Positions 46,783-63,821 of a stretch of 64,000 nt of DNA are shown here, in pieces (positions within the stretch are counted from its first letter, which is position 1; every line of letters begins with the position of its first letter). The stretch covers positions 15,822-79,821 of the forward strand of contig JAFGIV010000013.1 of NCBI GenBank assembly GCA_016929435.1, in the 5' to 3' direction. The notes beneath the pieces were generated by a model that worked only from the letters and a program-made list of their open reading frames with translations, was not told the origin of the DNA and made no database searches. This DNA is from Candidatus Uhrbacteria bacterium (lineage in GTDB: Bacteria; Patescibacteriota; Patescibacteriia; SG8-24). The translations under genes and the position numbers were made by a program.

Positions 46783-46834
46783 GTGGATCGCCGGTTAAGA
46801 GGTCGGTCATGCCCATGCCCGACCGGTTGCCAAC

Positions 46835-47293: not shown

Positions 47294-47335
47294 CCGGGCA
47301 GTACGGCCATCGGATCCGCTGTTAAACCTTCACCC

Positions 47336-49564
47336 ATGCTTGGAAGGAAACACCGGGAAAAAATCGCCGCCGTGACGGCCGACGGTCCGGGACACCGGAT
47401 CGGTTGGTTGTTGGCGGCGGTTTTGCTTTTGGCGTCAGCGGCGGCGTGGCCGGAAGCGGCCATGGCCCAGACGTCCGCCGCCGATCAGCTGGCGGCCGGA
47501 TTGGAGTCCACCCAGACAATCGGCCTGGGGACGGCCGATCTGGTGACCATGGTCGGGCGGATCATCAACGTTGCCCTGGGGATTTTGGGCGTCATAGTCG
47601 TTGTCCTGTTCGTGTACGCCGGTTACGTGTACATGATGGCCAAGGGCGATTCGGGGGAGGTCGACAAGGCCAAGCGGATCATGGTCAGTACGGTCATCGG
47701 GCTTGTCATTGTCCTGTCCGCCTACGCCATTACCCAGTTCATCCTTCGCACCATTTTGGGGAGCGTCGGACCGGGCGGCGGCCAGTCCGGTTCGGGGGGT
47801 TCGGTCTTGATGTCGAACTACTGCACGGACTGCGGCCCGGAACAGTTGGGCAACGGGATAATCTCCTACCACTACCCGACGGTCAACCAGACGGACGTGG
47901 AGCGGAACACCGGAATCGCCATTACCTTCAAGCTGCCGCTGTTGCCGTCGTCGGTACTGAAGAACTATTTCGATAACGGGACCTACGATACTGCGGATGA
48001 CGGCTGGTGCCCGACGGATTGCTCCGCGGAAGGGCACAACCCGATCGATCCGGCCAATCCCCCGACCTTTTACCTGAACGACGATAACGTCAAGGTCGTC
48101 CCGTTCGCTGACCTTCAGACGCCTTCCGGAAGCGCGGGTTCGGCGGAGGCCTTTGAGTCCCGGTACGACACCGATGCGGTCCTGTCCGGAGGGGAGGCAA
48201 CCGCCGTGCTGACGGCCGTTTCGCCGGTTTTTGACGTCAACGGATTGGGTCAGACCCTGGTGATCATGCCTACCGAATTTTTGGGAAGCAGCCAGGCTGA
48301 CGTGAACTACAGGGTGGCCCTGCGGGGCGGTTCGGACGAGGGGGCCATTCGGGTATTTGCCTGGGACCCGGATTCCGGCGCACCGGTATCGCGTCCGGCC
48401 TTCGACCGCCTCAATCCGGACGGGTCGTATTTCTGGAATTTCACCACCGGCACCCTCTTGGACCTGACCCCGCCGGAAATAACCGCCGTGGTACCCAAAA
48501 CCGCCAAGAACCTGCCGGTTGACGGCGACGATTCCGGACGGCTGTTCCGCAACCAGCTCCTGCAGGTCTATTTTTCCAAACCCATGAATCCGGCGACGGT
48601 TTCCGGGATCAACGGCAGCGGTTTCGGCTTCATTGAGACCTACTACAGGGACGGGGCGTCATGGAAGGTCCTGCCGGGAACGTGGGTCGTGGCGGCCGGG
48701 TATCGGGCCGTTGAGTACGTCCCTGACATGCCCTGCGACGGCATTACCGAAAACTCCTGTGGGGATAAGGTGTTTTGCCTGCCGTCGGATACCTTGATTG
48801 CCGTGGCCGTAAAGCCGGCCAGCGTCGGGGAACAGCCTCCCCGGGCCGCGGCCCTGAACGGCGTCGTTGACATGGTCGGCAACGTCCTGGACGGCAACGC
48901 CGACGGGGAGCTTTTGGGGCCGGGTCCGGTGGGAATCGGGTCATGGACCATGAACGGCTCCCTTATCCCCGGCACCTCGGTTTGGGCCAATTTTTCCAGG
49001 GATACCGTCATTTGGCTTTATGCGGTCGGAAACCGGATAGACCTTGAGCCGCCGAAGATAACGGCCGTAGACCCCACCAACCTTTCCAGCCGGCTCGGGC
49101 AGCCCTACCCGGACGGGTCGTCGCGGTTTCCGGTCGACCAGCCGATCACCTCCACCTGGACGAAGTCGATGAGCATCAAGTCCATGATCACCGGTCCTGA
49201 TTCCTACGGTCCGGCCACCATCGGCCTGCGGGCACAGGAGATAGCCAAGGACGGATCGGGGATCGGTTCGCCGGCCTTTACGGTCGAACCTGTCCTGGTT
49301 GACGGGGATACCCGCACCAGGATGGTCATGACCCACAGGATTTTCCTCACCGCCAACGATCTCGGATGGACGCCTCTCGACGCCAACCCCTCACTTCCAG
49401 TCTATATTCCGGTATTCAAGTCCCGCCTCCAGGATACCCGCCAAAACTGTTTCTACCCGAGTGAGGCGATCAACTGCTCGGGGATCGGGGAGATCAGCCC
49501 GTTTTGCTGCAGCGATTCGGTCAGCGCATCCGCCCTGCCGGCCTGTAACCCTAGCCTGCCGTAG
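47336..49564 (+). CDS. Secreted/membrane-anchored surface protein (742 aa): signal peptide, pilin-like double-TM N-terminal module, Ig-like (SbsA-type) repeats
   Basis: Signal peptide ending AMA|Q. Module ...MVGRIINVALGILGVIVVVLFVYAGYVYMMAKGDSGEVDKAKRIMVSTVIGLVIVLSAYAITQFIL is shared with the next gene. Gly-rich linker; repeated DLTPPEITAV/DLEPPKITAV Ig-like segments; C-terminal Cys cluster. Confidence 0.6.
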   Translation: MLGRKHREKIAAVTADGPGHRIGWLLAAVLLLASAAAWPEAAMAQTSAADQLAAGLESTQTIGLGTADLVTMVGRIINVALGILGVIVVVLFVYAGYVYMMAKGDSGEVDKAKRIMVSTVIGLVIVLSAYAITQFILRTILGSVGPGGGQSGSGGSVLMSNYCTDCGPEQLGNGIISYHYPTVNQTDVERNTGIAITFKLPLLPSSVLKNYFDNGTYDTADDGWCPTDCSAEGHNPIDPANPPTFYLNDDNVKVVPFADLQTPSGSAGSAEAFESRYDTDAVLSGGEATAVLTAVSPVFDVNGLGQTLVIMPTEFLGSSQADVNYRVALRGGSDEGAIRVFAWDPDSGAPVSRPAFDRLNPDGSYFWNFTTGTLLDLTPPEITAVVPKTAKNLPVDGDDSGRLFRNQLLQVYFSKPMNPATVSGINGSGFGFIETYYRDGASWKVLPGTWVVAAGYRAVEYVPDMPCDGITENSCGDKVFCLPSDTLIAVAVKPASVGEQPPRAAALNGVVDMVGNVLDGNADGELLGPGPVGIGSWTMNGSLIPGTSVWANFSRDTVIWLYAVGNRIDLEPPKITAVDPTNLSSRLGQPYPDGSSRFPVDQPITSTWTKSMSIKSMITGPDSYGPATIGLRAQEIAKDGSGIGSPAFTVEPVLVDGDTRTRMVMTHRIFLTANDLGWTPLDANPSLPVYIPVFKSRLQDTRQNCFYPSEAINCSGIGEISPFCCSDSVSASALPACNPSLP

Positions 49565-49567
49565 CGT

Positions 49568-52500
49568 ATGGTCAGACAAGCCCTTTCCGCAAGAAAAACG
49601 CTGGCCGCCATCCTGGCATTGGGTTTGGGGGCGGTTTTGGCCGTTCCCGCCCTGGCCCAAGTCGATGTCGGCCTGGAATCGGCGGCCGCCATTGGCCTTA
49701 CCACCACTGACATTCGAACGATCGTTTCCCAGGTAATCAACGTTTTCCTGGGTCTTTTGGGTATTGTGGCGGTTGCGCTGATAGTTTACGGCGGATACGT
49801 CTACATGATGGCCAAGGGGGACCAGAACGAGGTTCAGCGCGCCAAGAAGATATTGGTGAACGCCCTCATCGGGCTGATCATAATTTTGGCCTCATACGCC
49901 ATCGCCTCATTCGTGCTGCGGGCGATTTCCGGAGGCAGCGGCGGAGAGGTGGGGGAGGGGGATTGCCCTCCGGGGGCCACCTGCAGCTCCTCCTTCCCGT
50001 CCCCGGGCAACTCCCTCCTGCTGAACGGGGTCATTCCGAGCGGCAGCGGCCCGAACGGGATGGGTTGGACCAGGGATAGCCTGCCCAGGATCGTCTTTAA
50101 CCGCAAAATCGACGCAACCACCCTGGATGACAGCCGCATCAGGGTTACCCGCTGCAACAGCCGGATGGACGGGGAGACGATCGCCGATTTCAGGAACAGC
50201 GCCTGCAATACTGCGGTATCCGGGGAAGTCAGCCTGGTAAACGAGACCACTGCCGTGTTCCGACCGGTCGGACTGGAGAATGAGGGTCTTTTTGACGGTG
50301 ACTACTGGTATCGGCTGGAGCTTCGGGGGATCCCCCTGCCGATCAGGAGCCTGGACGGGAAGGACCTGGCATGCCTGACGGCCCTGCCGGGAGACGGGGA
50401 TTACGATTCCTACGTTCAGAACCTGCCGTCTAATTCCCGGGTCTGCATTAGGGCCATTGCCTACAACACCCTAATTGATACCGGACCGCCCACCGTAGCC
50501 ATCAGTTGGCCCAGGGACGGGCAGTCGATCTGTGCCGATACGACCGAGGCTTCGGCCGTGGCCAGGGACGATGTCCTGGTTTCGGGGATCCGGTTCTCTC
50601 TTTCCGATCCGGCCTCGCCGTCCGACCCGCTTTCCCTGGCCTTCCCGTCGAACCCCTTGGACATCCCCAATTCCGGGCAGGTGACCGGTCCGTTTACCGC
50701 CTCCGCCACGATTTTCGGCAGTCACCTCAACGTTGGACAGGAATACAGGTTTTCGGCCGTGGCTTCCGACCTCCGTTTCCCGAACCCCGAAGGGGAGACT
50801 GTTGGGGTTGATTTCAGCGTCAGGCCCCAGCACTGCTGCGACGGCCAGCTGAACGACGACGAGAGCGGGGTGGACTGTGGCCCTGATTCCGGCTGCGGGT
50901 CGTGCCCGGGGGACGGGTGCACGGAAAACGGCGACTGTTCGTCCGGTTTTTGCGAGGAAGGCGTCTGCGTTTCCCTGCCGCGAATAGTCTCCGTTGACCC
51001 GATTGATCCCAATACGCAAGTTTTTGGCGGCGGTCCGGGGACCCTGGTTACCCTGAACGGCGAGTACTTCGGCGGGGCGGTCGGGGTCGTGGAGTTCTAT
51101 GACGGTACGCATGCCCTGACCGCCGAACCGTGCCTTCCGGGAGCCTGGACCAACGGCCAGGTGACCGTTAGGGTTCCTGAGGGGGTGAAGGTGGGAGGGC
51201 GGTATTTCGTCCGACTGACCAGGTCCGACAGCCGACACACCAGCACGGAAGCCGGACAGGAGGATGCCTACGGCTGGCTGGGGTATTTTCAGGAGAACGG
51301 GAATAACACCCCGGGCATCTGCCTGATCAGGCCGGCCAGCGGCAGCGAGGGCGACGTTTTTGAGGTTGTCGGTGACGGTTTCGGTGACGGTTCGGTGGGT
51401 GACCTGACGGTTAGTTTCGGGATATCCAACCCTTTCACGGTGGTGCCGGATTCCCGGACAGCGTCTTCCCTGACGGCCAAGGTCCCGCGGGCCCCGGAGG
51501 GCACCTATCCGGTTCGGGTTTCCGGATCCGGATGGATGACCACAAACGACCCGAAGTTCGCCGTCCTTCTGCCCTCCGAAAGCATGCAGCCGAAGATCGA
51601 GGGGATTTCGCCGAACGCCGGCCCGGTCGGAAATTACGTTACGATCAGCGGTAAGGGGTTCGGCAGCCAGCGCGGGCGGGTGGTGTTCCTGTTCGGGGAC
51701 GGACTGAACGAGGAACGGGCCATTGGGGCGGATACGGTCTGCGAAGACAGCTGGAAGGACTCCTACGTTACGGTCAAGGTACCGAAACAGTACGAGTGCC
51801 AGGAAGGAAGCGCCTGTCCCCTGCAGTTGGGCACGCACCGGATCCGGGTGGAGACGGCCAAGGGGCTGAAGAGCAACACCGTTAACTTCACGGTCAACAC
51901 CGATCCCCTGACCCCGAACATCTGTTCCATCAAGCCGGATAACGGCCCGCCCGGCACGGTCGTGACGGTGGGCGGGGAAAACCTTGGATCCGGTCCGGCC
52001 GCCGCCGCTCCCCTGAACGCCGTCGGATACGAGTGCCAGGACCCGAACCAGACCGGATGCGACATCAACGGCGTCGCCATGTCCTCGGAGGTCTCCTCCT
52101 GGCAGGTGAAGGCCCTGAAGTCAATCGTTCCGGGCAACAGGCTTAGCGTTGCCACCTGGCCGGACAGCGGCGATGTCCATGTCTGGTCCTACAATGTCCG
52201 CAGCGGAAACGGCCTGCCGTTCCTGGTCCAGGACTGCAACGACGGCGGGGACCGGGCCTGCCCCGCGGGTTTCGTGTGCTGCCAATCCGGTATCTGCGAT
52301 GACGGTTCGTCCAGCCCGACCGGCCGTCCCTGCGACTTCAGCCGCACCAGCGAGTTCGCCTGGCGTTTGAGCACGGAGATGATGCCCGTACCCCCCCAGC
52401 TTCTGACCTGTCCGTCATGCGGGGCGGTCGCCTGTCCCCTGACCGACGGCCTGCAGAGCCCCTCCCCGTTTCCGGGGTCGCGGGATGCCTGCGTCAACGC

Positions 52501-55500
52501 CAACATTGAGGCGGTGATCAGCCAGCGGCTGGAGGTTCCGTCCGGTGTCTCCGCGGCGGTTTCCGTTCTGTCCTGCGGTTCCGGGGAATCGCCGGATTCC
52601 TGTGTCGATGTGACAGGTGAAATGTCCCTGACGGTTTCGGCGGTCGGGGCGGGAGGGGGAAGCGGCCTGGTCAGCATCCGGCCGTCCGGCGGGGATTTCC
52701 TCCTGCCGGATACCTGGTACAGGGTCACTCTCAAATCCGACGGGCTTAGGGAAAACCTGACCGGGAACCGTACGGCCTTTGACGGCGACAGGGACGGCCT
52801 GCCGGGCGGCGATTATGTTTGGGAGTTCCGGACCAAGGATTCCCCCTGTGCCCTTGCGTCGGTAAGCGTAACGCCGAGCGAATACAACATTGACCACTGG
52901 AAGGGACAGCCGTCCCCGGACGACAGCGGTTTCAGGGCCGGCCTTCAGGCCGCCAACTGCAACAGCATCACCTGTGATCCCCTGAGCTATTCCATCGGGT
53001 GGTCGGTATCCGATCCCATGACGATATCCAAGGTGACGACGGCCAAGGCCTGTCACCAGAAGGTAGAGGCCCTGAAGGAAACCCTAATCGGGGAATTGGT
53101 CGACCTTTCGGCCAATGTCCGGCCTGTAGGGGAAACCCTGAGCCGGACCGGGAAGGCGGGGATTACGGCCCGGTTCGCCGATCCGGAGGTAGCGGGATTT
53201 GAGCCTGATTGCGATGAGGCCTGCGTCAACGCCGCCATCGGCATGACGTTCAGCACGCCGATGGAACCGAATTCCGTAATCGCCGGCAATACCGTCCTTC
53301 TCAAGACCTGCCGAAACCAAAGCTGCAACGAGCCTTTCGAGACGGCCGGGGCGGTCGGTCTGGTCGGCATCGAAAGCTATGCTGGCACTGATTCCGACGG
53401 CTATGTCGGATTCAGCCTTGATACCGACTCTGACCTGGCGCCGAACACTTTCTACCTGGTGATGGTGAAGGGCGGAGGGAACGGCGTGATGAGCAAGAGC
53501 GGCAAGACCCTGGTCGGCACCAACCTTACCGATTCCTCCGGAACCCCCTGGTTTACCTGGCGTTTCCGGACCAAGGACAGCAACCTGCCCTGCCAGCCGA
53601 GTCGGGCGGAAATAGTACCAAGGAACGCCGAGTTCAGGTATGTCGGACAGAAACTGCCGCTTTTCGTCCGCACCTACGGTTCCCCCGATTCCTGCAGCGC
53701 CGAAGGGCAGGCCCTGAACGCCGGCGATTACGGCTGGAGTTGGGGAAAGACGGCCAATGGCGTAGTCAGCCGGTTCCTGACCTCTGGGTCGGCCACTGTC
53801 CTGGATACCAATCCGGCCGTCCCGATCGGGTGCTCCTCCAGTTGCCTTAAGGTCGGTTCCCAGACGGCCCGGCCCCAATGCGGCAACGGGAAGGTCGAAT
53901 TAGGGGAGGATTGTGACGGAGGCAGCGGCTGCTCCCCCACCTGCCTGAACACCGGTTCCCCGACCTGCGGCAACGGTGTCCTTGATCCTGGGGAGGATTG
54001 CGAGTCGGTCGGCGGGATATTCCCTCCCGGGTGCTCCGACTGCCTCAATGCCGGATCGGCCCAGGGGAACTCGACCTGCGGCGACGGGTACGTTGGGGAC
54101 GGCGAGGATTGCGACGGGACCAGCGGCTGTGACCCCGTGTCCTGCCTAAATTTGGGGACCTTGCCCAGGTGCGAGGCCGTTACCGCACCCAAACCGGGCG
54201 TTAACTGCATAAACTATTGCGGAAACGGGATTTTGGAATACGGGGAGGAGTGTGAGGCTGCAGGCGGCACCTTTCCCCCGGGTTGCGACAGGAAAACCTG
54301 CCTGTGGGCCGGGACACCCAAGTGTTCCGATCCTGAAGGCGCCAAATGCTGCGGCAACGGGATTACGGACAGCGGGGAGGATCCGGGTTGCGAGTTCGGG
54401 TTCGGCCAATCGGCCGAATGGTGCGACGACCGGTGCCTGAACCGCGGATCCTCATACCTTTACGATTCGCCCAGCTTCTGCGGAGACATGGTTTTGGGCA
54501 GCGGGGAGGAATTGGGGTGTGAGGTGGCCTCCACAGGCCAGCCCGGACCGGCCGATCCTTTCCAGGTGATACTCGGGGGCAAGCCCCTGGCCACGGCCAT
54601 TGACCCGGCCACCGGATCGGCGACCGACACGGTAACATCCCGGACCGGGGGGATTTCGGCATCCAACCAGGGTGAAGCCACCGTCAGCCTTACCTGCCGC
54701 TGCCGGGAGGAGGACGATCCGCACGGTTTCTGTGAGTCGGTGGGGGAAGGTTTGGGGTGCGACGACATCGGCTGCTGCTCGCCGGCTCCCGGCGTGGCCG
54801 GCTCTACGCCGGCGGACGGCTCCTCCAACATCTGCCGCAATGCCCTTGTCAGCGTTGTTTTCGATGCGGCCATCAGTCCAGACTCGGTCAACGGCAGCAG
54901 TTTCCGGGTCGTGCGGGACGCTGGTTTTGGCACGCCGGCCTGCCGGTTCTGCAGTAACGATCCGGACAGGGCCTGCCTGTCCGATGGGGATTGCGGTTCG
55001 GGCGGTACCTGCCAGGACGGGACGGTGGAGAACGGCGGGAAGATACTGGCCGCTGTCGGCACGGGGGAACCGTCCGAAGACGGCGGGTTATGGGATCGGT
55101 TCGTCCGGTTCGTCCGCCGGCTGTTTTTCCGGTCAGCGTCAGCCCAGACTGTACAGACCTTCTGTCGGGTTCCCGGCCAGGTCAGCCTGACCGGACAGGA
55201 CACCGTTACCTTTACCCCGTTCGGCGTAATGTCCGGAACGGTAGGCCACCACATCCTTTTGACCGGCGGCAGCGACGGAATTCGCTCGTCCATGGGCGTG
55301 CCCATGAAGGCGGACCGGAGGATATCGTTCGTCACCTCGGACAGCGTCTGCGAAATAGGATCGATCCGGATCGATCCGGAATCGGTCCTGATCCAGGGCA
55401 TTGAGGGGGAAAACTCCTCCTTTGTCCTGACGGCCCATGCCCAGGCGGCCGGCCAGCCGGTCGGGACGGAAATCGTTTCCACGCCGGCCTATCGGTTCGA

Positions 55501-58500
55501 CTGGAACTGGAACCTGCCGGTCGTCACCTCTCCGGTGGCGCTGACGGTATCCGACTTTTTTCCTGACGGCCAGGGCCACAGTCCGGTATCCGAAGTCAGG
55601 GCCAGGACAGGAGCGGGATTCCCGAAGGAGGGGAGGGAAACCGTAACGGTCCGGACCGACATATACGGTTCGGGGACATCGGTCACCAAAACCATGACTG
55701 CCTCTTCCGATGCGACGGTCATGCTCTGTGAGCACCCGTGGCCGGATTGGCATGTCTGCAGTTCGGCCAATGACGTCTATTATCCCTATCCGGGGCACGC
55801 CGTCGACTGTTCCAGGGCCGGCCAGCAGATGTGGTATCCGTTCATAGACGGAAGCACCCTAACCTCCTTCTATTACTGTCGTGACGGTGCCACGGCCGGC
55901 GATTCCGGACAGTTGCTGCCGGCATTGAGCGGCGTTAAGATCGGCAGTAACCGGGCCGACATCCTCCACGAATACCTGTTCACCTTTCCGGGTTCGGCGG
56001 GGGAAAACTGGGTTAGGGACGCCATCGGACTGCGGGTTTCCAAGAACATGGAGCATTTCGGCATTTCCGACTGGTATTCCCGGCAGGGTTTCGTCGGTTC
56101 CCCGCAGCCGGTAACGATGGACGGCTATGAGGGCCTGAAGGAGGGACGGAGCGTTTACGTAAATGCCGCCGCCAAGACCGCCGTTTCCCCGAACCTGTAC
56201 ACCAATGTGTATACCCTGTCCCACAGTGACGGGGCTTCCCCGGAGACGGTCGGCATTTTCAGCCAGATCCTCGGAAACATGGACATGAACTGGCGGGTCC
56301 TGACCGACAGCCGCTATTGCGTGATTGACGACAGGCAGGTCCTGGTTGACGGGCAACCGGTATATTGCGAGAAGGACCGGGACTGTCGGGTTACGGCCGG
56401 TGACGACGGCCGGGAATCGTTCCCATCCGAAAGGTCCGTTTGGACCTGTCAGGCCGACAGGAGCAAGGTCCGACGCGATGTCCTGCGCTGGTCAGACATC
56501 CATACCATCCGTCTGGCCCTGAACCGGGCCCGGTCGGTAGGCGGATACCCGTCCCTGGATTCCGGGACCTACCTGCGCGGCTGGACCACCAGTGCCTGGC
56601 CGTCCTGGAACGAGGTCTTGGCGAACCAGATCGGTTTGGGGTCGCTTCCGGCCGATCCGGCGGAGGGTTTCATGGACTGCGGAACCGGCGGTTCGGGGCA
56701 CGATTCAGTGACCTGCTGGGATCCGGCTGTCAGGACCTACCGGTGTCCGTCCGGATCGCAGACATATACGTATAGGGGTTTGGGCGGGCTGAACTATGTC
56801 CTGGAGGCGATGTTCGAGTATGCGGACGGAAACTGGGCCAGCGGCACTGCCTGTTTGGGCAAGGGCGAGCCTGCCTGCCGGGCAAACGACCGTTGCGAAT
56901 GGCTTTCCTCCGACGGCTCCCCTTCGGAATGCCAATACCGGGGCGGCGGTCGGATAAGGGTCAGGGGTATCGGTAACGTTGAAACCACGTGCTCATCCGG
57001 GGTTACCGTTGGCATCGGCTCGGTTTGCGGTGACGGCCTGGTCGGGGAAGGGGAGGAATGCGAGCCGGGAGTGTCGTCCCCGCGCCAGATTCCCTGCGCG
57101 GCGGATTCGCGGAGCGGTTTCCGCCATCAGGCCTGCAATGACCAGTGCCGGTGGCAGGACTCCAGCGGCTGCATTACCGGTTCCTGCGGCGACGGCATTG
57201 TCCAGACGGAAGCGGGCGAGGCCTGCGATGACGGGCCCCTGAACGGGCAATACGGCCGATGCGGCAATGACTGCACCTATTCTGCCTCCCGATGCGGCGA
57301 CGGCGTCCGTCAGGCCAACGAGGCCTGCGATTGTGCACCCGGCGGGTTGCCGAACGGCACCTATGCCCTGAACGGCGTCCTGGCATCGTCCGGACAGCGG
57401 TGCGGAAACTCCGGACACGCCGTTCCGGGGTGTGCCTGGGACTGTTCCGGTCCCGGACCGCGCTGCGGTGACCTGGTGGTGAACGGCAGCGAGCAGTGCG
57501 ACGGCGGGACGGAGGAATATCCCAGGCTGTGCATCGGAAAGAACAACGGCAACCCGAAACGGCCGGTCATGACCGGCAACACCTACAGTCCGGTTCCCGG
57601 AAACGCCTACACCGGGTGTCGGACAGATGCCGATTGCCCGAGTGACCAGGTTTGCGCCGCCCTATGCGATCCTGACAGGCCGGAGCGGGTCTGGCGCAGG
57701 AACTGCCAGAGCAACGACCCGTTCGATTGGTTCGATAACGATGACGGCAGGGCCTGCACCTGGACCGTTTGGCAGTGCGGCTCGGCAGGTTTCTGCGGCA
57801 ACGGGGTCTTGGAAACGGGGGAGGAATGCGATGACGGCAATGACGACAATATGGACTCCTGCATCATCGACCCGAACGGCACCGGAACCTTCGGGACGCC
57901 GGTGATGTGCCGGAAAGCCGCCTGCGGCGACGGCTACGTCAGCCCGTCCAACAACGAGGAGTGCGATGCCGGCAGCCAAAACGGCCAGTCCTGCATTGCG
58001 GAATACGGCAAGACCTGCTCGTTCTGTTCGACGGGATGCAAGTTGGCCTACGTTTCCGGCGGGTTCTGCGGGGACAGCGTCATCCAGAACCGTTCCTTTG
58101 TCCCTCCGGGGCCGGAGGAATGCGAAGGGAGCCTGGAGCTGGAGAACTGGGTCTGCGTCAGCGACCGCCCGGAACACCAGATGTTCGGAAAGATGACCGG
58201 TTTGGCCATATGTGACCACGAAAGGGGGTGTGTCCGGGGGTGTTCCGATTCCGGGTCGGTCCCGTGCCTGGAGACCGGGAACCCGCTTGCCGGATCGGAT
58301 TACGACGGGGAGGCCGGATGGGACAAGCCGAACGATGCCCTTTTGGCGGCCATCGGTTACGGTTATGACCTGGGACAGACGGTTTTGGCTGACGGGCCGT
58401 GCGATCCGGACTGGGATAACGACGGCGTGCCCAACGGTTCGGACTGCCGCCCGACGGTCAGTGAGGTGCATCCCGCATACCAGGTGGTGGCCTCGGACGG

Positions 58501-59320
58501 CAAGGTCTTGAGGGTTCCGGCTGCCTTTGACGACTGCGACGGCTGCGATAACGACTGCGACGGCGTAGTGGACAACGGCGATCCCGACATATTCAAGAAG
58601 GTGGACATCCTGTTCGTGGTGGACGGTTCCGCATCAATGGACACCAGCATTCGGGGGCTGACCATGTTCACGGCGGATTTGGCCAGGCAGATGATACCTC
58701 CGGATAGGCCGGATGGGGTTCCGGCTGAAGTGGGAACAAAAGTCAAGCTGGGCCTCATCCAGTACTCGTGGAAAAGCAAGGATGATGAGGGTTCGGGCTA
58801 CAGGCGCGAATTAGACCTCTCCACCCCCAAGGTCTATTCCGAATGGGCGGATGGTTTCGCTGACAAGTGTGAGGGGGACTGCACCACCCAAGGCGGAATA
58901 GAAGCCGGAACCGCCATGCTGTGGAAGATACTCCAGGACCGGTTCGTCGATGAAAGCACCATGCCGGACATCACTTGGGACCAAGACGCCGTCCCCTACA
59001 TCATCATCATGACCGATGACAACCCCTACCAGCTGGTGGATGTCATCGAGAAATCGGCCCCCTCGGATATACGCGACATGTTGGGTGACGATCCGAGGGC
59101 CCAGATATTCGCCCTGCAGATGAGAACGAGAAGATGTTCCCCAGGTTCCTGTTCAGAGCATTGGGATATCGTTTTCGCCAACTACCCGGAAAACGAGACT
59201 CACCTCAAGGTTGCGGATCCGGGTAAGGATTTCGAGTATTACAGGGGAGAGTTCGGCCAGTTCTTCTACGACTATATCCTGAGACACATCTGCTACGCCT
59301 ATGTCTGCAGATTCGACTGA
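49568..59320 (+). CDS. Giant cell-surface protein (3250 aa): pilin-like N-terminal anchor module, IPT/TIG repeats, numerous Cys-rich CxxCGDG...EECDDG repeats, C-terminal VWA domain
   Basis: Uninterrupted 9.75 kb ORF. N-terminus paralogous to the 47336 gene. IPT/TIG-like segments (PRIVSVDPIDP...GGGPGTLVTLNGEYFG; PKIEGISPNAGPVGNYVTISGKGFG; PNICSIKPDNGPPGTVVTVGGENLG). More than 15 repeats of the CGNG/CGDGxxxxGEECD type. VWA with MIDAS DxSxS (DILFVVDGSASMDTS). Confidence 0.7.
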   Translation: MVRQALSARKTLAAILALGLGAVLAVPALAQVDVGLESAAAIGLTTTDIRTIVSQVINVFLGLLGIVAVALIVYGGYVYMMAKGDQNEVQRAKKILVNALIGLIIILASYAIASFVLRAISGGSGGEVGEGDCPPGATCSSSFPSPGNSLLLNGVIPSGSGPNGMGWTRDSLPRIVFNRKIDATTLDDSRIRVTRCNSRMDGETIADFRNSACNTAVSGEVSLVNETTAVFRPVGLENEGLFDGDYWYRLELRGIPLPIRSLDGKDLACLTALPGDGDYDSYVQNLPSNSRVCIRAIAYNTLIDTGPPTVAISWPRDGQSICADTTEASAVARDDVLVSGIRFSLSDPASPSDPLSLAFPSNPLDIPNSGQVTGPFTASATIFGSHLNVGQEYRFSAVASDLRFPNPEGETVGVDFSVRPQHCCDGQLNDDESGVDCGPDSGCGSCPGDGCTENGDCSSGFCEEGVCVSLPRIVSVDPIDPNTQVFGGGPGTLVTLNGEYFGGAVGVVEFYDGTHALTAEPCLPGAWTNGQVTVRVPEGVKVGGRYFVRLTRSDSRHTSTEAGQEDAYGWLGYFQENGNNTPGICLIRPASGSEGDVFEVVGDGFGDGSVGDLTVSFGISNPFTVVPDSRTASSLTAKVPRAPEGTYPVRVSGSGWMTTNDPKFAVLLPSESMQPKIEGISPNAGPVGNYVTISGKGFGSQRGRVVFLFGDGLNEERAIGADTVCEDSWKDSYVTVKVPKQYECQEGSACPLQLGTHRIRVETAKGLKSNTVNFTVNTDPLTPNICSIKPDNGPPGTVVTVGGENLGSGPAAAAPLNAVGYECQDPNQTGCDINGVAMSSEVSSWQVKALKSIVPGNRLSVATWPDSGDVHVWSYNVRSGNGLPFLVQDCNDGGDRACPAGFVCCQSGICDDGSSSPTGRPCDFSRTSEFAWRLSTEMMPVPPQLLTCPSCGAVACPLTDGLQSPSPFPGSRDACVNANIEAVISQRLEVPSGVSAAVSVLSCGSGESPDSCVDVTGEMSLTVSAVGAGGGSGLVSIRPSGGDFLLPDTWYRVTLKSDGLRENLTGNRTAFDGDRDGLPGGDYVWEFRTKDSPCALASVSVTPSEYNIDHWKGQPSPDDSGFRAGLQAANCNSITCDPLSYSIGWSVSDPMTISKVTTAKACHQKVEALKETLIGELVDLSANVRPVGETLSRTGKAGITARFADPEVAGFEPDCDEACVNAAIGMTFSTPMEPNSVIAGNTVLLKTCRNQSCNEPFETAGAVGLVGIESYAGTDSDGYVGFSLDTDSDLAPNTFYLVMVKGGGNGVMSKSGKTLVGTNLTDSSGTPWFTWRFRTKDSNLPCQPSRAEIVPRNAEFRYVGQKLPLFVRTYGSPDSCSAEGQALNAGDYGWSWGKTANGVVSRFLTSGSATVLDTNPAVPIGCSSSCLKVGSQTARPQCGNGKVELGEDCDGGSGCSPTCLNTGSPTCGNGVLDPGEDCESVGGIFPPGCSDCLNAGSAQGNSTCGDGYVGDGEDCDGTSGCDPVSCLNLGTLPRCEAVTAPKPGVNCINYCGNGILEYGEECEAAGGTFPPGCDRKTCLWAGTPKCSDPEGAKCCGNGITDSGEDPGCEFGFGQSAEWCDDRCLNRGSSYLYDSPSFCGDMVLGSGEELGCEVASTGQPGPADPFQVILGGKPLATAIDPATGSATDTVTSRTGGISASNQGEATVSLTCRCREEDDPHGFCESVGEGLGCDDIGCCSPAPGVAGSTPADGSSNICRNALVSVVFDAAISPDSVNGSSFRVVRDAGFGTPACRFCSNDPDRACLSDGDCGSGGTCQDGTVENGGKILAAVGTGEPSEDGGLWDRFVRFVRRLFFRSASAQTVQTFCRVPGQVSLTGQDTVTFTPFGVMSGTVGHHILLTGGSDGIRSSMGVPMKADRRISFVTSDSVCEIGSIRIDPESVLIQGIEGENSSFVLTAHAQAAGQPVGTEIVSTPAYRFDWNWNLPVVTSPVALTVSDFFPDGQGHSPVSEVRARTGAGFPKEGRETVTVRTDIYGSGTSVTKTMTASSDATVMLCEHPWPDWHVCSSANDVYYPYPGHAVDCSRAGQQMWYPFIDGSTLTSFYYCRDGATAGDSGQLLPALSGVKIGSNRADILHEYLFTFPGSAGENWVRDAIGLRVSKNMEHFGISDWYSRQGFVGSPQPVTMDGYEGLKEGRSVYVNAAAKTAVSPNLYTNVYTLSHSDGASPETVGIFSQILGNMDMNWRVLTDSRYCVIDDRQVLVDGQPVYCEKDRDCRVTAGDDGRESFPSERSVWTCQADRSKVRRDVLRWSDIHTIRLALNRARSVGGYPSLDSGTYLRGWTTSAWPSWNEVLANQIGLGSLPADPAEGFMDCGTGGSGHDSVTCWDPAVRTYRCPSGSQTYTYRGLGGLNYVLEAMFEYADGNWASGTACLGKGEPACRANDRCEWLSSDGSPSECQYRGGGRIRVRGIGNVETTCSSGVTVGIGSVCGDGLVGEGEECEPGVSSPRQIPCAADSRSGFRHQACNDQCRWQDSSGCITGSCGDGIVQTEAGEACDDGPLNGQYGRCGNDCTYSASRCGDGVRQANEACDCAPGGLPNGTYALNGVLASSGQRCGNSGHAVPGCAWDCSGPGPRCGDLVVNGSEQCDGGTEEYPRLCIGKNNGNPKRPVMTGNTYSPVPGNAYTGCRTDADCPSDQVCAALCDPDRPERVWRRNCQSNDPFDWFDNDDGRACTWTVWQCGSAGFCGNGVLETGEECDDGNDDNMDSCIIDPNGTGTFGTPVMCRKAACGDGYVSPSNNEECDAGSQNGQSCIAEYGKTCSFCSTGCKLAYVSGGFCGDSVIQNRSFVPPGPEECEGSLELENWVCVSDRPEHQMFGKMTGLAICDHERGCVRGCSDSGSVPCLETGNPLAGSDYDGEAGWDKPNDALLAAIGYGYDLGQTVLADGPCDPDWDNDGVPNGSDCRPTVSEVHPAYQVVASDGKVLRVPAAFDDCDGCDNDCDGVVDNGDPDIFKKVDILFVVDGSASMDTSIRGLTMFTADLARQMIPPDRPDGVPAEVGTKVKLGLIQYSWKSKDDEGSGYRRELDLSTPKVYSEWADGFADKCEGDCTTQGGIEAGTAMLWKILQDRFVDESTMPDITWDQDAVPYIIIMTDDNPYQLVDVIEKSAPSDIRDMLGDDPRAQIFALQMRTRRCSPGSCSEHWDIVFANYPENETHLKVADPGKDFEYYRGEFGQFFYDYILRHICYAYVCRFD

Positions 59321-59338
59321 TAGTCACCCCCAAACGCC

Positions 59339-59842
59339 ATGAGAAAGTTCGCCATTGCCATTGTCCTGCTGTCCGTCCTGCTGACGGCCGGAATAGTGCT
59401 GGTCGTAAGGGAACGGAACAGACATTCGGTTTCCGGAGTCCCAGACGTCCCGCTGGCCGGAAACGTGGGATCCGAATCCGGCCTGACTGCGGATAATTCG
59501 GGCCCGACCCAGCCGTTCTGCGGGGACTATGTCTGCGACACCGGGGAGACGATTGCCGGCTGCCCCATTGACTGTCCGCCGACGGTCATGTCCGGGGTGG
59601 AAATACGGAACCAAACCGCCGACGTTTCGTGGAAAAGCCTGATACCGGTGACCATTTCCGTCCGGTACGGCTCCGGTACCCTGGACCGCACCGCCAACCT
59701 GGATCGGGCATCAACGGAACACGAGTTAAGGCTGGAGGGAATCGAGCCGGATACGATATACGACCTGTGCGTTGTTTCGGTTGGGGAGGACGGAACCCGG
59801 TATCCGGAATCGTGCGATGAGTTCCGGTCTCCGGCGGAATAG
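59339..59842 (+). CDS. Small membrane-anchored protein with Cys-rich motif and FN3-like domain
   Basis: N-terminal signal anchor; CGDYVCDTGETIAGCPIDC motif, the same pattern as the repeats in the 60536 gene; beta-rich C-terminal domain. Confidence 0.5.
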   Translation: MRKFAIAIVLLSVLLTAGIVLVVRERNRHSVSGVPDVPLAGNVGSESGLTADNSGPTQPFCGDYVCDTGETIAGCPIDCPPTVMSGVEIRNQTADVSWKSLIPVTISVRYGSGTLDRTANLDRASTEHELRLEGIEPDTIYDLCVVSVGEDGTRYPESCDEFRSPAE

Positions 59843-59876
59843 GGCGGCTTTTGTGGTATAGTAACGGTATAGGCTT

Positions 59877-60539
59877 ATGTTTGATTCCGTACAGGAACCG
59901 GAGGACATCTTCGCCGGGACTGATCCGGTGGCGCCGGCAGGGAACGCCGCGCCGGTGGCGACCGGGGAGACGGAGGGGTCTCCGGCCATAACGAGGAAAG
60001 GTCCGTCGCCGCTGATCCCCATTGCCGTCATTGCCCTTGTTTTTGGGGCCGTCGGCGGCGGGGGTTACTATTGGTATTCCCAGCGAACCGGCGGCCATGC
60101 CTCGGTTTTGGAGGAACAACCGGTCGAGACCGTGGAAACGGAACCCGTTCAGGAAGAGACGTTCGGGGAGGAATTGCCGGAAGGGTTTCCGGACACGGAG
60201 GGGGAGGAAACGGAAGGGATCGGAAATGGAACGGAAGGGGAGACCGAAACCGGCGGGGAGGAATCTGCGGAGGGGGAGGGCGAACCAACGGAACCGGTCA
60301 ATGCCGTTGATACCGACGGTGACGGCTTGAGCGACGACGAGGAGCTGGCGATCGGTTCCGACCCGTCGGTAACCGACACGGACGGGGACGGGCTGACCGA
60401 TTTCGACGAGGTCCGCATATACCGGTCAGACCCATTGCTGGCGGATACGGACGGCGACGGTTACCCGGACGGCCTGGAGGTTTCCGGCGGCTATAGCCCC
60501 ATCGGTCCGGGCCGCCTGTTCGAGGTTCCGGTCGAGTGA
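59877..60539 (+). CDS. Membrane protein with acidic linker and three thrombospondin-type-3-like Ca-binding repeats
   Basis: Single TM; DTDGDGLSDDEE, DTDGDGLTDFDE, DTDGDGYPDGLE repeats. Confidence 0.5.
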   Translation: MFDSVQEPEDIFAGTDPVAPAGNAAPVATGETEGSPAITRKGPSPLIPIAVIALVFGAVGGGGYYWYSQRTGGHASVLEEQPVETVETEPVQEETFGEELPEGFPDTEGEETEGIGNGTEGETETGGEESAEGEGEPTEPVNAVDTDGDGLSDDEELAIGSDPSVTDTDGDGLTDFDEVRIYRSDPLLADTDGDGYPDGLEVSGGYSPIGPGRLFEVPVE

Positions 60540-61741
60540 TTTTTACGGATATGAAGGAAGACAGCGACAAAAACACGGAAGGGATAGGGCAAGTCCCTTC
60601 AGGGAACGGGGAGGCGGCACCGAAGAATCCGGAACCGCCGGTTATCCATGTCATTCCCGATGAGTTTCACGGGGCGGCCCTGAAGCGGAAAGTCAGGCTG
60701 TCCCAGCCCGAAAAGCCAAAAAAGACCCCGCCGCCCAAGGTTTCGCCTGAAAAGGCCGGACCGCCGGCAAAGGCATCCGGACAGAAGCCCGATGGCGCCG
60801 ACAGGCGGAAAAGGGGGATACTGATGGCGATCATGGGGCTGTTCATCCTGGCAATCATCGGTCTGGCGGCCTATTATTTTCTGTACGTGAGAAAGGCCCC
60901 GCCGGCGGAGGAGGTGCCGATCACCGAGGAACCGGAGATTCGTTGCGGAGACGGCCGCTGCGATGACGGCGAGGATGCGGTGACCTGCGCTTCCGACTGT
61001 GCGGTGAAGGCCTTTTGCGGGGACGGAACCTGCCAGGAGTCGGAGGGGGAGGATTGGCGCTCCTGTCCGGGGGACTGCGAGGTTCCGGAACCGGTATGCG
61101 GGGACGGGATCTGCGAGGAGGCCATCGGGGAGGGTTACGAGACCTGTCCGGAGGACTGCGAACCGCCGGCCCCCAGCCCCTCCCCGGATACGGACAGCGA
61201 CGGCATGACCGATATCGAGGAGACCGAAATCTACGGCACCAACCCCTATATCCCGGATACGGACGGGGACAGTTTCGTTGACCTGAACGAGCTGCTCAAC
61301 CTGTTTAACCCGTCCAAGATTCAGCCGTCCGTCCTTTTGGACAATCCCGGAGTCGCCGAATTCGGGAGTCAGACGGAAGGGTATCTCCTGATCTACCCGA
61401 AGGCCTGGACCGTCAGCGAGGATGCGGACAGGAAGACCGCCGTCTTTCAGGCGGGCAGCGGAGAGTCGATATCCGTTTCCGTGGACGAGAACACGGAAGG
61501 GTTGAGCCTGATGGATTGGTACCTGTCCGGGAACCCCTCCCTCCGCAGTTCGGAGGTTCCGGTGTTCCGGACAAAATACGGCTACGACGAGATCGTCAGC
61601 CAGGACCAGATGGTTTCCCACGTGGGGATAGACGGGCGGATTTTTACCGTCAGGTACGAATTGGGCAACCAGCTGAAGATTCGCTACAAGGCGACCTTTA
61701 AGATGATGGTCAACAGCATTAAGCCGCCGTCAGGGCTATGA
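60536..61741 (+). CDS. Membrane protein with three CGDGxC...C..DC mini-repeats, TSP3-like repeats and a C-terminal globular domain
   Basis: Pro/Lys-rich N-terminus, single TM. CGDGRCDDGEDAVTCASDC / CGDGTCQESEGEDWRSCPGDC / CGDGICEEAIGEGYETCPEDC; DTDSDGMTD, DTDGDSFVD. GTGA overlap with the upstream gene and ATGA overlap with ybeY. Confidence 0.5.
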   Translation: MIFTDMKEDSDKNTEGIGQVPSGNGEAAPKNPEPPVIHVIPDEFHGAALKRKVRLSQPEKPKKTPPPKVSPEKAGPPAKASGQKPDGADRRKRGILMAIMGLFILAIIGLAAYYFLYVRKAPPAEEVPITEEPEIRCGDGRCDDGEDAVTCASDCAVKAFCGDGTCQESEGEDWRSCPGDCEVPEPVCGDGICEEAIGEGYETCPEDCEPPAPSPSPDTDSDGMTDIEETEIYGTNPYIPDTDGDSFVDLNELLNLFNPSKIQPSVLLDNPGVAEFGSQTEGYLLIYPKAWTVSEDADRKTAVFQAGSGESISVSVDENTEGLSLMDWYLSGNPSLRSSEVPVFRTKYGYDEIVSQDQMVSHVGIDGRIFTVRYELGNQLKIRYKATFKMMVNSIKPPSGL

Positions 61742-62172
61742 TTGACGTGGAATGCTCCGGCCGTTTCCCGTCCGGATTGGGCAGGGACGAGGCCGTCAGC
61801 CTGGTGCGGAGGGTGATCGGGACTTCCGGTGACTGGAAAACCGCAACGGTCAGCCTGTCCCTGGTCAATGACCGTGAAATCAGGCGGATCAACCGGAAAT
61901 GGCGGGGGGTTGACCGCCCGACCGATGTCCTTTCGTTCTCGTATCCCAGGATCGGTTCCGGCCAGGTGCCGAAATCCGGTGACGTCGTCATTTCCCTGGA
62001 AACCGTCCGGCGCCAGGCCAAGACGAACCTCCGGACGGTCCGGGAGGAGCTGGCCCTGATGATCGTTCACGGCTGCCTGCATCTCCTGGGGTTTGACCAC
62101 GATACGGCGGCCAGGGAGAACCGGATGTTCCGCATCCAACAGGACATGCTGTTGGGAACCGGATTTTTCTGA
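61738..62172 (+). CDS. ybeY: rRNA maturation endoribonuclease YbeY
   Basis: HGCLHLLGFDH zinc-binding motif. Confidence 0.88.
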   Translation: MIDVECSGRFPSGLGRDEAVSLVRRVIGTSGDWKTATVSLSLVNDREIRRINRKWRGVDRPTDVLSFSYPRIGSGQVPKSGDVVISLETVRRQAKTNLRTVREELALMIVHGCLHLLGFDHDTAARENRMFRIQQDMLLGTGFF

Positions 62173-62177
62173 AGGCC

Positions 62178-62540
62178 ATGATGATCAGCCCCAAAAAGGT
62201 AATCCGGAGTTTCCGCCACGCCCTTCGGGGGACGGTCAAGGTGTTTCGGGAAGAGCACAGCTTCAGGGTGGAGCTGGTCGCCGCCGCCGCCGTTACGGTC
62301 CTGATGTTCGCTTTTGGGCTCCGAACCTCAGAGAAGGCCATTCTCGTACTGGTCATGCTTCTGGTCCTCGTCCTGGAGCTGGTCAACAGCGTCTTCGAGC
62401 GGATCGCCGACATGCTGAAGCCGCGCTTCCATCCCTATGTGGAGGACCTGAAGGACATCATGGCGGCCACTGTCCTCGTTTCTGCGGTAGGGGCGGTTGC
62501 CATCGGGCTTTTGATTTTTTGGCCCTATATTGTAAAATAA
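62178..62540 (+). CDS. dgkA: DgkA-family membrane kinase (diacylglycerol/undecaprenol kinase)
   Basis: 120 aa, 3 TM; ELVNSVFE and DLKDIMAATVL blocks as in DgkA. Confidence 0.75.
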   Translation: MMISPKKVIRSFRHALRGTVKVFREEHSFRVELVAAAAVTVLMFAFGLRTSEKAILVLVMLLVLVLELVNSVFERIADMLKPRFHPYVEDLKDIMAATVLVSAVGAVAIGLLIFWPYIVK

Positions 62541-62573
62541 AACAGGCTTCGAGCTCTGGTTAAGGATAGGTTT

Positions 62574-63821
62574 ATGCCCAACGACGAATTGTTTGCCGGA
62601 ATAGACATAGGGACGACGGCCGTCCGGGTGGCGGTCGGCCAAAGGTTGCCGATGGGGGACAGGGAAACCGTCCACATCATCGGTGTGGCCGACCACCCGA
62701 CCGAGGGGGTGAAACGTGGGGTCATCAATTCCATTGAGGACGCCGTTTCTTCGGTTTCGGCCTGCCTGGAGAAGGCCGAGCGGGGTTTGGGCAGCCAGAT
62801 ATCCTCCGCATGGGTAGGCGTTTCCGGGAACCAGGTCAGTTCCGTCGTAAGCAAGGGGGTCACCGCGGTTTCCAGGACGGATGGGGAGATCAGGGAGGAG
62901 GATGTCGAGCGGGCCCTGCAGCAGGCCCAGACCGTGGCCTTGCCGGCTAATTTTGAGACCATCCATGTCTTGCCGCGCGCCTATTCCGTTGACGGACAGA
63001 CCGGCATAAAGGATCCGGTAGGCATGACCGGAATCCGTCTGGAGGTCGAGTCCCAGATCATCCAGGCCCCTACCCCCTACATAAAGAACCTGACCAAATG
63101 CGTCTATCGGACCGGAATCAACCTGGAGCAGACCGTTTTGGGTATCCTGGCGGCAGCGGAGGTGACGGTCAGCCAGAGACAGAAGGAGTTGGGGGTGGCG
63201 GTCGTCAATATCGGGCACTCCTCCACCTCCATGGCCGTCTTTGAGGGCGGGGACCTGCTTCACCTGGCCTCCGTTCCCATCGGGTCGGATCATGTCACGG
63301 CCGATTTGGCCATCGGGTTACGGACCACCCTGGATATCGCCGAAAGGATCAAGGTCGGACACGCTTCGGCCGTACCGGGACAATTCGACAAGAACGACCG
63401 CATTGACCTGATGGAGTTGGGGGCCGACGAGAGGGAGGATTGCTCCCTGAAATTCGTGGCACAGATCGTTCAGGCTCGCCTGGAGGAACTGCTGGAGAAG
63501 ATCGATCGGGAGATGGTGAAGGTCGGACGGAGCGGGATGCTTCCGGCCGGAGTGGTGATGACCGGCGGGGGATCAAAGACGGCGGGCCTGGTGGACTTGG
63601 CCAAGAGAAAGCTTCGGCTGCCGGTTTCCCTCGGATACCCGGTAAACATCACCAGCTACACCGATCGGGTCAACGACTTGTCCTATACGACCGCCATCGG
63701 CTTGGTCCAGTGGGGAATAAACGAATCCGGCCCGATGGGGAAAAGCGGATCCTTTGCCGGTTTTCGGATGGCGGAAAAGGCCGTCGGAAGGATCAAGGGG
63801 CTTTTTGGGGTCAGGACCTGA
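62574..63821 (+). CDS. ftsA: Cell division protein FtsA
   Basis: Actin-like ATPase; FAGIDIGTTAVRVAV phosphate-1 motif; about 415 aa. Confidence 0.88.
   Translation: MPNDELFAGIDIGTTAVRVAVGQRLPMGDRETVHIIGVADHPTEGVKRGVINSIEDAVSSVSACLEKAERGLGSQISSAWVGVSGNQVSSVVSKGVTAVSRTDGEIREEDVERALQQAQTVALPANFETIHVLPRAYSVDGQTGIKDPVGMTGIRLEVESQIIQAPTPYIKNLTKCVYRTGINLEQTVLGILAAAEVTVSQRQKELGVAVVNIGHSSTSMAVFEGGDLLHLASVPIGSDHVTADLAIGLRTTLDIAERIKVGHASAVPGQFDKNDRIDLMELGADEREDCSLKFVAQIVQARLEELLEKIDREMVKVGRSGMLPAGVVMTGGGSKTAGLVDLAKRKLRLPVSLGYPVNITSYTDRVNDLSYTTAIGLVQWGINESGPMGKSGSFAGFRMAEKAVGRIKGLFGVRT

Follow-up and report, generated by a model that had tools for sequence, protein, structure and literature searches.

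Thirteen conserved Cys-rich units of the DUF4215 type, most likely stabilised by Ca2+ and disulfides, in a predicted giant surface protein of Candidatus Uhrbacteria

Arrays of an acidic, Cys-rich repeat in large secreted proteins are catalogued as DUF4215 (PF13948) and TIGR02232 ('Myxococcus cysteine-rich acidic repeat'). Two modules of solved structure bear on how such a repeat may work. In the animal metalloprotease PAPP-A, domain M3, small and built of coil and strand, is a linker between beta-sandwich domains, with density for two Ca2+ ions (PMC9579167). In ADAM proteins and P-III snake venom metalloproteases (SVMPs), the sequence XCGN(X)3EXGEXCD forms a buried structural Ca2+ site, site II, whose ligands are the side chains of Asn, Glu, Glu, and Asp (PMC4885070). 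Within the candidate phyla radiation (CPR), large exported Cys-rich proteins of Peribacteria weakly resemble Myxococcus repeat proteins and pappalysin-1, and a role in rigidity or surface attachment was proposed for them (Anantharaman et al. 2016, PMC4736985). We describe here 13 units of the DUF4215 type in the product of a giant open reading frame (ORF) of Candidatus Uhrbacteria bacterium, located in a 64,000-nucleotide stretch of contig JAFGIV010000013.1 (hereafter the window, to which all DNA coordinates refer). The units lie in two clusters separated by Ig-like and other domains, and the protein ends in a predicted von Willebrand factor A (VWA) domain. The arrays are a fixed, conserved architectural feature rather than a variable or recombining one, and each unit is most likely a small module held by disulfides and structural Ca2+.

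A motif scan of the giant protein identified six Cys-rich units in cluster 1, starting at amino acids (aa) 1438, 1467, 1504, 1551, 1595, and 1638 (window 53879-54574), and seven in cluster 2, starting at aa 2487, 2540, 2576, 2633, 2743, 2786, and 2834 (window 57026-58219). A half-unit, CSSSCLKVGS at aa 1422, lies ahead of the first unit of cluster 1. The unit scores given below were obtained with a profile hidden Markov model (HMM) built from 40 unit sequences, for which the best score among shuffled sequences was 7.5 bits.

49568-59320, forward strand: giant ORF, 3250 aa
53831-54574, forward strand: cluster 1, a half-unit and six DUF4215-type units; a diverged array in which the 'DDGNxxxGDG' half is replaced
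53879-53965, forward strand: unit 1.1, CGNGKVELGEDCD..., 27.7 bits; full ADAM-type Ca2+ site II consensus
53966-54076, forward strand: unit 1.2, CGNGVLDPGEDCE..., 35.3 bits
54077-54217, forward strand: unit 1.3, CGDGYVGDGEDCD..., 22.5 bits
54218-54349, forward strand: unit 1.4, CGNGILEYGEECE..., 39.2 bits
54350-54478, forward strand: unit 1.5, CGNGITDSGEDPGCE..., 14.0 bits; two-residue insertion
54479-54574, forward strand: unit 1.6, CGDMVLGSGEELGCE..., 0.4 bits; degenerate
57026-58219, forward strand: cluster 2, seven DUF4215-type units and irregular Cys-rich inserts, from DUF4215 and TIGR02232 scans
57026-57184, forward strand: unit 2.1, CGDGLVGEGEECE..., 25.9 bits
57185-57292, forward strand: unit 2.2, CGDGIVQTEAGEACDDGPLNGQYGRC..., 30.9 bits
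57293-57463, forward strand: unit 2.3, CGDGVRQANEACDC..., 24.8 bits
57464-57793, forward strand: unit 2.4, CGDLVVNGSEQCD..., 5.5 bits; followed by a Cys-rich insert of ~90 aa
57794-57922, forward strand: unit 2.5, CGNGVLETGEECDDGNDDNMDSC, 38.9 bits; the most canonical unit, with the full Ca2+-site consensus
57923-58066, forward strand: unit 2.6, CGDGYVSPSNNEECDAGSQNGQSC..., 19.1 bits
58067-58219, forward strand: unit 2.7, CGDSVIQNRSFVPPGPEECE..., long loop insertion; recognised through the homologue alignment only

Ten units thus scored 14-39 bits, and the three that start at aa 1638, 2633, and 2834 were degenerate. A preliminary description of this DNA had counted more than 15 copies; by motif there are 13, the three degenerate ones included, together with the half-unit. 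The two clusters that it had located were borne out by the motif starts, and the eight peptides that it quoted were all found in the translation of the giant ORF. The CxxC prefix that it had placed directly before GDG is absent from the units, in which the Cys preceding GDG lies 0-9 residues upstream. Both clusters consist of 10-11% Cys and 15-18% Gly, with an isoelectric point of about 4.1-4.25; cluster 1 contains 28 Cys, an even number (11.3% Cys; isoelectric point 4.05).

The G+C content of the window is ~60-63%, and many ORFs on the opposite strand overlap the giant ORF. These are the usual spurious by-products of such a composition, and the repeat pattern might in the same way be an artefact of the Gly, Asp, Glu, and Cys codons of a GC-rich ORF, or the ORF itself might be spurious. 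Shuffled sequences, however, never came near the observed counts or HMM scores. A loose regular expression gave 13 matches, compared with a mean of 0.016-0.02 and a maximum of 1-2 in 2000 residue shuffles of either the whole protein or the clusters alone. An HMM built from the cluster 2 units scored cluster 1 at 33.1 bits, compared with a maximum of 2.8 bits in 500 shuffles, and the reverse HMM, from cluster 1 units, scored cluster 2 at 16.5 bits, compared with 9.1 bits in shuffles. The mutual similarity of the repeats claimed in the preliminary description therefore stood up to statistical testing. In addition, the giant protein has ~90 full-length homologues with a shared domain order, and an identical protein (100% identity) is deposited at NCBI as MBN1585291.1, 'IPT/TIG domain-containing protein [Candidatus Uhrbacteria bacterium]'. 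A compositional artefact was rejected on the shuffle results for both regular expression and HMM, and we give that explanation virtually no credence.

The assignment of the repeats to the Myxococcus-type family was confirmed for cluster 2, whose segment exceeded the cut-offs of both DUF4215 (49.7 bits; cut-off, 27) and TIGR02232 (23.6 bits; cut-off, 20.8). Neither family was listed in whole-protein Pfam and NCBIfam scans of the giant protein; both were seen in the segment scan. Cluster 1 alone fell below both cut-offs, with 15.3 bits for DUF4215 and 15.2 bits for TIGR02232. It nonetheless aligned column by column with the matching segment of 57 full-length homologues, and the orthologous segments of five homologues scored 39-96 bits on DUF4215, whereas that of the closest relative (42% identity) scored 24.1 bits and was likewise below threshold. 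The low score of cluster 1 is explained by replacement, in this subclade, of 'DDGNxxxGDGC' by short Gly/Pro loops (GGSG, SVGGIFPPG, GTSG, and AAGGTFPPG in the giant protein). The canonical second half is present only in unit 2.5 and in partial form in units 2.2 and 2.6. Judged from these alignments, cluster 1 is a diverged array of the same repeat family as cluster 2.

Homologues of the giant protein are automatically annotated as 'DUF4215 domain-containing' or 'cysteine-rich repeat protein'. The units share with DUF4215 and TIGR02232 the core CG[DN]G-x(4-6)-GE-x-CD, four Cys per unit, and tandem arrangement in a large secreted protein. They differ in that cluster 1 lacks the canonical 'DDGNxxxGDGC' half, in that the cluster 2 units are spaced by irregular Cys-rich inserts that are conserved in the family, and in that they form a fixed set of six plus seven in a giant protein specific to Patescibacteria. 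By profile score and alignment, the repeats are new, diverged members of a catalogued repeat family.

In other bacteria, giant surface proteins often vary in the copy number of their tandem repeats through recombination between units, and the arrays might similarly serve as a contingency device that diversifies the protein. The preliminary description had suggested such variation by recombination and had proposed a comparison of copy number across strains. The somewhat different HMM and regular-expression counts obtained for distant homologues would fit such variation. DNA identity between units, however, was only 60-79% over 38-60 nucleotides (nt), the highest value being reached over 38 nt; the longest exact match between distinct units was 14 nt, the longest exact repeat in the gene was 15 nt, and Tandem Repeats Finder detected no array in either cluster. 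Among the 57 full-length homologues, which are 28-50% identical over aligned aa 1405-2480, each of the six cluster 1 units keeps the same residue in its C, G, E, and C columns in 46-57 sequences, and each of the seven cluster 2 units in 52-57. Even for unit 1.6, degenerate as it is in the giant protein, these columns are kept in 50-57 of 57. Together with position-specific signatures found throughout the family, such as 'CDDGxLNGxYGxC' and 'CDCGxxNGxY', this conservation indicates that the units are orthologous one by one. HMM unit counts per cluster are stable across the family, and given that each unit aligns to its own block of columns, the differences in count reflect degenerate units that fall below threshold.

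Close strains gave the same picture. Fifteen comparisons at 92-99.9% identity, which cover four homologue lineages (the 90%-identity cluster of the giant gene itself has a single member), revealed no whole-unit insertion or deletion, the only differences being indels of 1-6 aa and a 29-aa difference in the called start. Full-length proteins of the four 90%-identity clusters measured 3310 aa (n = 6), 3358 aa (n = 4), 3289-3298 aa (n = 5), and 3666 or 3694-3695 aa. A recombining array was rejected on the low DNA identity between units and the lack of unit indels among close strains; we consider it very unlikely, and the suggestion of variable copy number did not hold in the lineages compared. 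The arrays are thus a fixed feature of the protein.

To compare the units with proteins of known structure, we searched the PDB with single sequences and with profiles. Neither the clusters nor the C-terminus yielded a meaningful match as single sequences; only profiles did. The best match of the 40-sequence unit profile among solved structures was PAPP-A (E = 5e-8; residues 945-977 of the 1627-residue chain), with PAPP-A2 also matched (PDB 8HGG, 7UFG, 8A7D, and others). The matched stretch of PAPP-A falls within domain M3 (S944-G995), and the units would resemble M3 as a small disulfide-bonded linker of coil and strand with Ca2+, of which M3 has two. They differ from it in number and setting: M3 is a single copy in an animal metalloprotease, whereas the giant protein contains 13 copies and no protease domain. 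The profile also matched 26-37 residues of ADAM10, ADAM17, and disintegrin chains. Units 1.1, 1.2, 1.4, and 2.5 fit the site II consensus of ADAM proteins and P-III SVMPs exactly, with N/D and E/D treated as equivalent, and the others fit it approximately. The correspondence is limited to the first 15-30 residues of the Ds ('shoulder') subdomain, and the units have neither the Da 'arm' nor the disintegrin loop; a full disintegrin domain (Ds plus Da, about 90 aa with about 14 Cys) is not formed by them. Any homology of the units to the ADAM disintegrin would be remote.

On the basis of these likenesses, one unit would be a disulfide-held loop of ~30-50 residues with few secondary-structure elements; a canonical unit has four Cys. 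The acidic turn of the unit, C-G-[ND]-G-x3-[ED]-x-G-E-x-C-[DE], most likely cages a structural Ca2+ ion, as in the ADAM 'shoulder' and PAPP-A M3. The arrays would then act as stiff, protease-resistant spacers between the Ig-like domains (TIG and Big_5), the central domain, and the C-terminal VWA domain.

A Cys density of 10-11% might instead point to binding of transition metals (Zn or Fe-S) by the clusters, or to redox activity. The Cys residues of the units, however, lack CxxC and CxxCH spacing, on which ground this explanation was rejected. The region is moreover predicted to be extracellular, the conserved non-Cys residues (Asp, Glu, Asn, and Gly) are typical Ca2+ ligands, and the related solved modules use disulfides and Ca2+. 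We regard metal clusters or redox activity as extremely unlikely.

A further possibility is that the units are themselves ligand-binding or adhesive elements, their variable loops contacting, for example, glycans or proteins of a host surface in the way that disintegrin loops bind integrins. A protein of diatom adhesive trails contains DUF4215 repeats (bioRxiv 10.1101/2023.03.06.531300), variability of the unit across homologues is greatest in the loops between Cys2 and Cys3, and the units of cluster 2 bear position-specific inserts that are conserved in the family. On the other hand, the closest solved relative, PAPP-A M3, has been described as a linker between beta-sandwich domains rather than a binding site (PMC9579167), the motif in ADAM proteins is a buried structural Ca2+ site (PMC4885070), and the giant protein already possesses a dedicated domain of adhesion type, the VWA domain. 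An adhesive role of the units is rather unlikely in our view, and we favor the structural role described above.

The giant protein consists, in order, of an N-terminal region, IPT/TIG and Big_5 domains, cluster 1, a Big_5 match, a central domain, cluster 2, a TSP3-like motif, and the C-terminal VWA domain. The features outside the clusters are as follows.

49568-49936, forward strand: signal-peptide-like segment and two-helix VirB2-like hairpin (aa 1-123), from a match to Pfam T4SS_pilin (PF18895) at aa 46-116
50885-52267, forward strand: IPT/TIG Ig-like array segment, four matched stretches, 71.3 bits
54785-54913, forward strand: Big_5 Ig-like match between the clusters (aa 1740-1782), from the domain scan
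55685-56977, forward strand: central domain (aa 2040-2470, 430 aa), conserved among homologues
58400-58471, forward strand: weak TSP3-like Ca2+-binding motif (DPDWDNDGVPNGSDC), TSP_3 16.5 bits, below the cut-off of 25
58574-59317, forward strand: C-terminal VWA-fold domain (aa 3003-3250), from the family profile and an AlphaFold2 model

The N-terminus matched PF18895 with 41-43.5 bits (cut-off, 26.6), and matches below threshold were obtained to TrbC/VirB2 and to a mycoplasma ICE pilin-like family. Hydropathy analysis detected hydrophobic segments at aa 8-36, 49-82, and 92-123 only. Given that none lies beyond aa 123, ~3100 aa of the protein should be extracellular, as the preliminary description had supposed for the repeats. 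The first 120 aa resemble VirB2/TrbC-type pilins of the type IV secretion system (T4SS) in having a signal peptide and two hydrophobic helices. They differ from these pilins in being fused to a C-terminal ectodomain of ~3100 aa rather than forming a small stand-alone subunit, and T4SS machinery (VirB4 and others) was not found among the window ORFs scanned.

No family match was obtained for the central domain (aa 2040-2470) in Pfam and NCBIfam scans. Relatives were found in 1315 representatives of 50%-identity clusters; many of these are proteins of 3000-4000 aa that carry the domain near residue 2000 or beyond. In an AlphaFold2 model of aa 1405-2480, the central domain had a predicted local distance difference test (pLDDT) score of 70-90, was rich in beta structure, and contained a 29-residue helix (model residues 893-921). 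Foldseek searches with this model yielded mostly generic matches to tandem Ig-like domains (S-layer proteins SbsB and SbsC, Ig-like domains of L,D-transpeptidases, and cadherins), and the central domain was therefore left without a fold assignment. Two Cys-rich patches of another kind were also noted in the giant protein. One, at aa 423-469 (window 50834-50974), reads CCDGQLNDDESGVDCGPDSGCGSCPGDGCTENGDCSSGFCEEGVCV and is kept in the family consensus (CxNGxxDxDxETGxDCGGxxCGAC...); the other, CRFCSNDPDRACLSDGDCGSGGTCQDG, lies at aa 1756-1793 (window 54833-54946).

The C-terminal domain carries the sequence DGSASMDTS at aa 3019-3027 (window 58622-58648), with DxSxS at aa 3019-3023 (window 58622-58636). 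A profile of the C-terminal family matched PDB entries for the VWA domain of collagen VI (8.6e-21), the pilus-tip adhesin SpaC (4e-16), Mfa5, and integrin I domains. An AlphaFold2 model of the domain showed alternating strands and helices, with a pLDDT of 79.5 and a predicted template modelling score of 0.84, and the PDB matches listed for it by Foldseek were all of VWA fold (E about 4e-8 to 3e-6). The family profile, the model, and the Foldseek matches together support a VWA fold, in agreement with the preliminary description, which had noted a VWA domain with DxSxS after the repeats. An alignment of 17 C-termini revealed F-x-x-D-x-S-x-S-M to be invariant, with the DxSxS residues at aa 3019, 3021, and 3023 of the giant protein (D17, S19, and S21 in the first sequence of the alignment), and the Asp of strand beta4 to be nearly invariant (TDD in the giant protein). 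The metal ion-dependent adhesion site (MIDAS) is, from this alignment, probably intact at DxSxS and at the Asp.

VWA-tipped adhesins such as SpaC of Lactobacillus rhamnosus, Mfa5 of Porphyromonas, and PilY1-type proteins likewise display, as the tip of a long Ig-like stalk, a VWA domain with DxSxS, and SpaC and Mfa5 were among the PDB matches of both the family profile and the model. The giant protein differs from them in that a VirB2-like hairpin anchor is part of the same polypeptide, in place of sortase linkage or a type IV pilus shaft; it has no LPXTG motif and is 5-10 times longer.

Taken together, these results are best accounted for by 13 fixed Ca2+- and disulfide-stabilised modules in a membrane-held giant surface fibre or adhesin with a VWA tip, a reading to which we assign a probability of roughly 0.65. 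The 3250-aa chain would be held in the membrane by its N-terminal signal peptide and VirB2-like hairpin. It would most likely serve as a long fibre or adhesin at the cell surface and bind, through its VWA tip, a ligand that may sit on a host cell. Several observations weigh against this reading. With regard to the units, the matches to the N-termini of ADAM10 and ADAM17 disintegrin regions are weak, at E values of about 1e-3 or weaker; the Pfam disintegrin family gave no match at E values up to 10; and the complete ADAM-type ligand set is present in only 4 of the 13 units, the other nine deviating at one ligand position (for example, in lacking the acid at position 7) or having loop insertions. 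The canonical second half 'CDDGNxxxGDGCsxxC' is absent from the cluster 1 units of the giant protein, and cluster 1 had a pLDDT of only about 25-35 in the AlphaFold2 model of aa 1405-2480, calculated with 22 homologues, so that this part of the model is not usable. Ca2+ binding and disulfide pairing of the units, although most likely, are thus proposed from sequence. With regard to the tip, the Pfam VWA family (PF00092) scored 17.9 bits, below its cut-off of 23.8, and covered profile positions 1-57 only. The MIDAS Thr position appears to be occupied by Glu (GGIEAG, aa about 3108-3114, window 58880-58900): the giant protein and its nearest relatives have Gly-Gly-x-Glu-Pro/Ala, and distant family members have Gly-Thr-x-Thr. 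Metal coordination by the VWA domain may therefore be altered. The adhesin role, finally, is suggested by analogy of domains.

The giant gene is the second of a five-gene cassette, the other members of which are listed below.

47336-49564, forward strand: upstream gene, 742 aa, with a T4SS_pilin (PF18895) hairpin, Big_5-like domains, and a Cys-rich C-terminal tail
59339-61741, forward strand: three downstream genes for single-pass membrane proteins of 167, 220, and 401 aa, from hydropathy and domain scans

The 742-aa gene ends 4 nt before the giant ORF. Distant relatives also have this pair of genes (L001, 7793-9988; L002, 8065-9999), and in them the three downstream positions are likewise occupied. 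The downstream proteins carry an fn3-like region, TSP3_bac repeats (71 bits in the 220-aa protein), and short 'CGDGxC...CxxDC' repeats, which differ from the units of the giant protein and of which the 401-aa protein has three (RCGDGRCDDGEDAVTCASDC, FCGDGTCQESEGEDWRSCPGDC, and VCGDGICEEAIGEGYETCPEDC). The cassette lies between yqeY and ybeY, with hisS further upstream and dagK and ftsA downstream (window 44727-63821). The order hisS, (rpsU), yqeY, pilin-fusion gene, giant gene, three small genes, ybeY, dagK, ftsA was also found, continuing into ftsZ, on two complete-scale contigs; the giant proteins encoded there share only 42% and 28% identity with that described here. Given that gene order is kept at this level of identity, the cassette behaves like a vertically inherited core locus beside division genes. 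The giant protein is the core of a five-gene cassette at a conserved chromosomal position in Uhrbacteria and related Patescibacteria.

VirB2-like genes are widespread in CPR genomes (bioRxiv 10.1101/2025.01.22.634366). The cassette might be imagined to encode an undescribed surface organelle of Uhrbacteria-type Patescibacteria, in which its two VirB2-like hairpins co-assemble into a short T4SS-derived filament or raft that displays a giant Ca2+-stiffened, VWA-tipped fibre and so attaches the cell to a host. No T4SS machinery domains were detected in the main ORFs scanned across the 64-kb window, and we consider this extension decidedly doubtful. Such an organelle would mean that an episymbiont anchors its adhesin with a module taken over from conjugative pilins.

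Relatives of the giant gene were found in at least 86 species-level genomes, with record titles that include Uhrbacteria, Falkowbacteria, Magasanikbacteria, Komeilibacteria, Buchananbacteria, Paceibacter, and 'Patescibacteria group'. Many records with the giant gene (loci L006, L009, L010, L013, and others) bear the title 'uncultured Gammaproteobacteria bacterium', apparently a placeholder or mistaken name from a bulk submission of metagenome-assembled genomes (MAGs). In one Uhrbacteria MAG (a 1.08-Mb contig), the annotation splits the orthologous giant gene into three successive ORFs, QQR61143.1, QQR61144.1, and QQR61145.1, of 971, 1852, and 406 aa, which suggests frameshifts, assembly errors, or pseudogenisation. 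Elsewhere in the window, G+C content falls to 0.48-0.51 at positions 38001-42000, compared with about 0.60 outside this stretch, which includes a putative zinc peptidase of the DUF5700 family (39076-40059) and could have been acquired horizontally. A 622-aa ORF at 16439-18307 (reverse strand) had no Pfam match at E values of up to 1e-4 and overlaps a 440-aa ORF on the forward strand (16889-18211).

Among described proteins of CPR bacteria, those of Peribacteria are similar to the giant protein in being large, Cys-rich, and equipped with a signal peptide. They belong to another phylum-level lineage and have another architecture, and the paper on them describes no pilin-type anchor or VWA domain. 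A survey of T4SS in the CPR that made use of PF18895 reported that no adhesins were detected (bioRxiv 10.1101/2025.01.22.634366), and in literature on PF18895, giant genes of Patescibacteria, and Cys-rich or pilin proteins of Uhrbacteria we found no description of a pilin-giant fusion.

The repeats themselves are fairly ordinary, and it is the conserved cassette with its pilin-anchored, VWA-tipped protein that deserves attention. For the DUF4215 family, whose function is formally 'unknown', the present analysis provides a tie to two solved Ca2+ modules, PAPP-A M3 and ADAM site II, and adds that the units form a fixed orthologous set, together with a testable prediction of structural Ca2+ and disulfides. 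The protein that carries them is one of a very large family of giant, syntenically encoded proteins of Patescibacteria, predicted to be displayed at the surface with a VirB2-like anchor and a VWA tip. If the giant protein mediates attachment to a host, these episymbionts would have in it a candidate for their missing adhesin.

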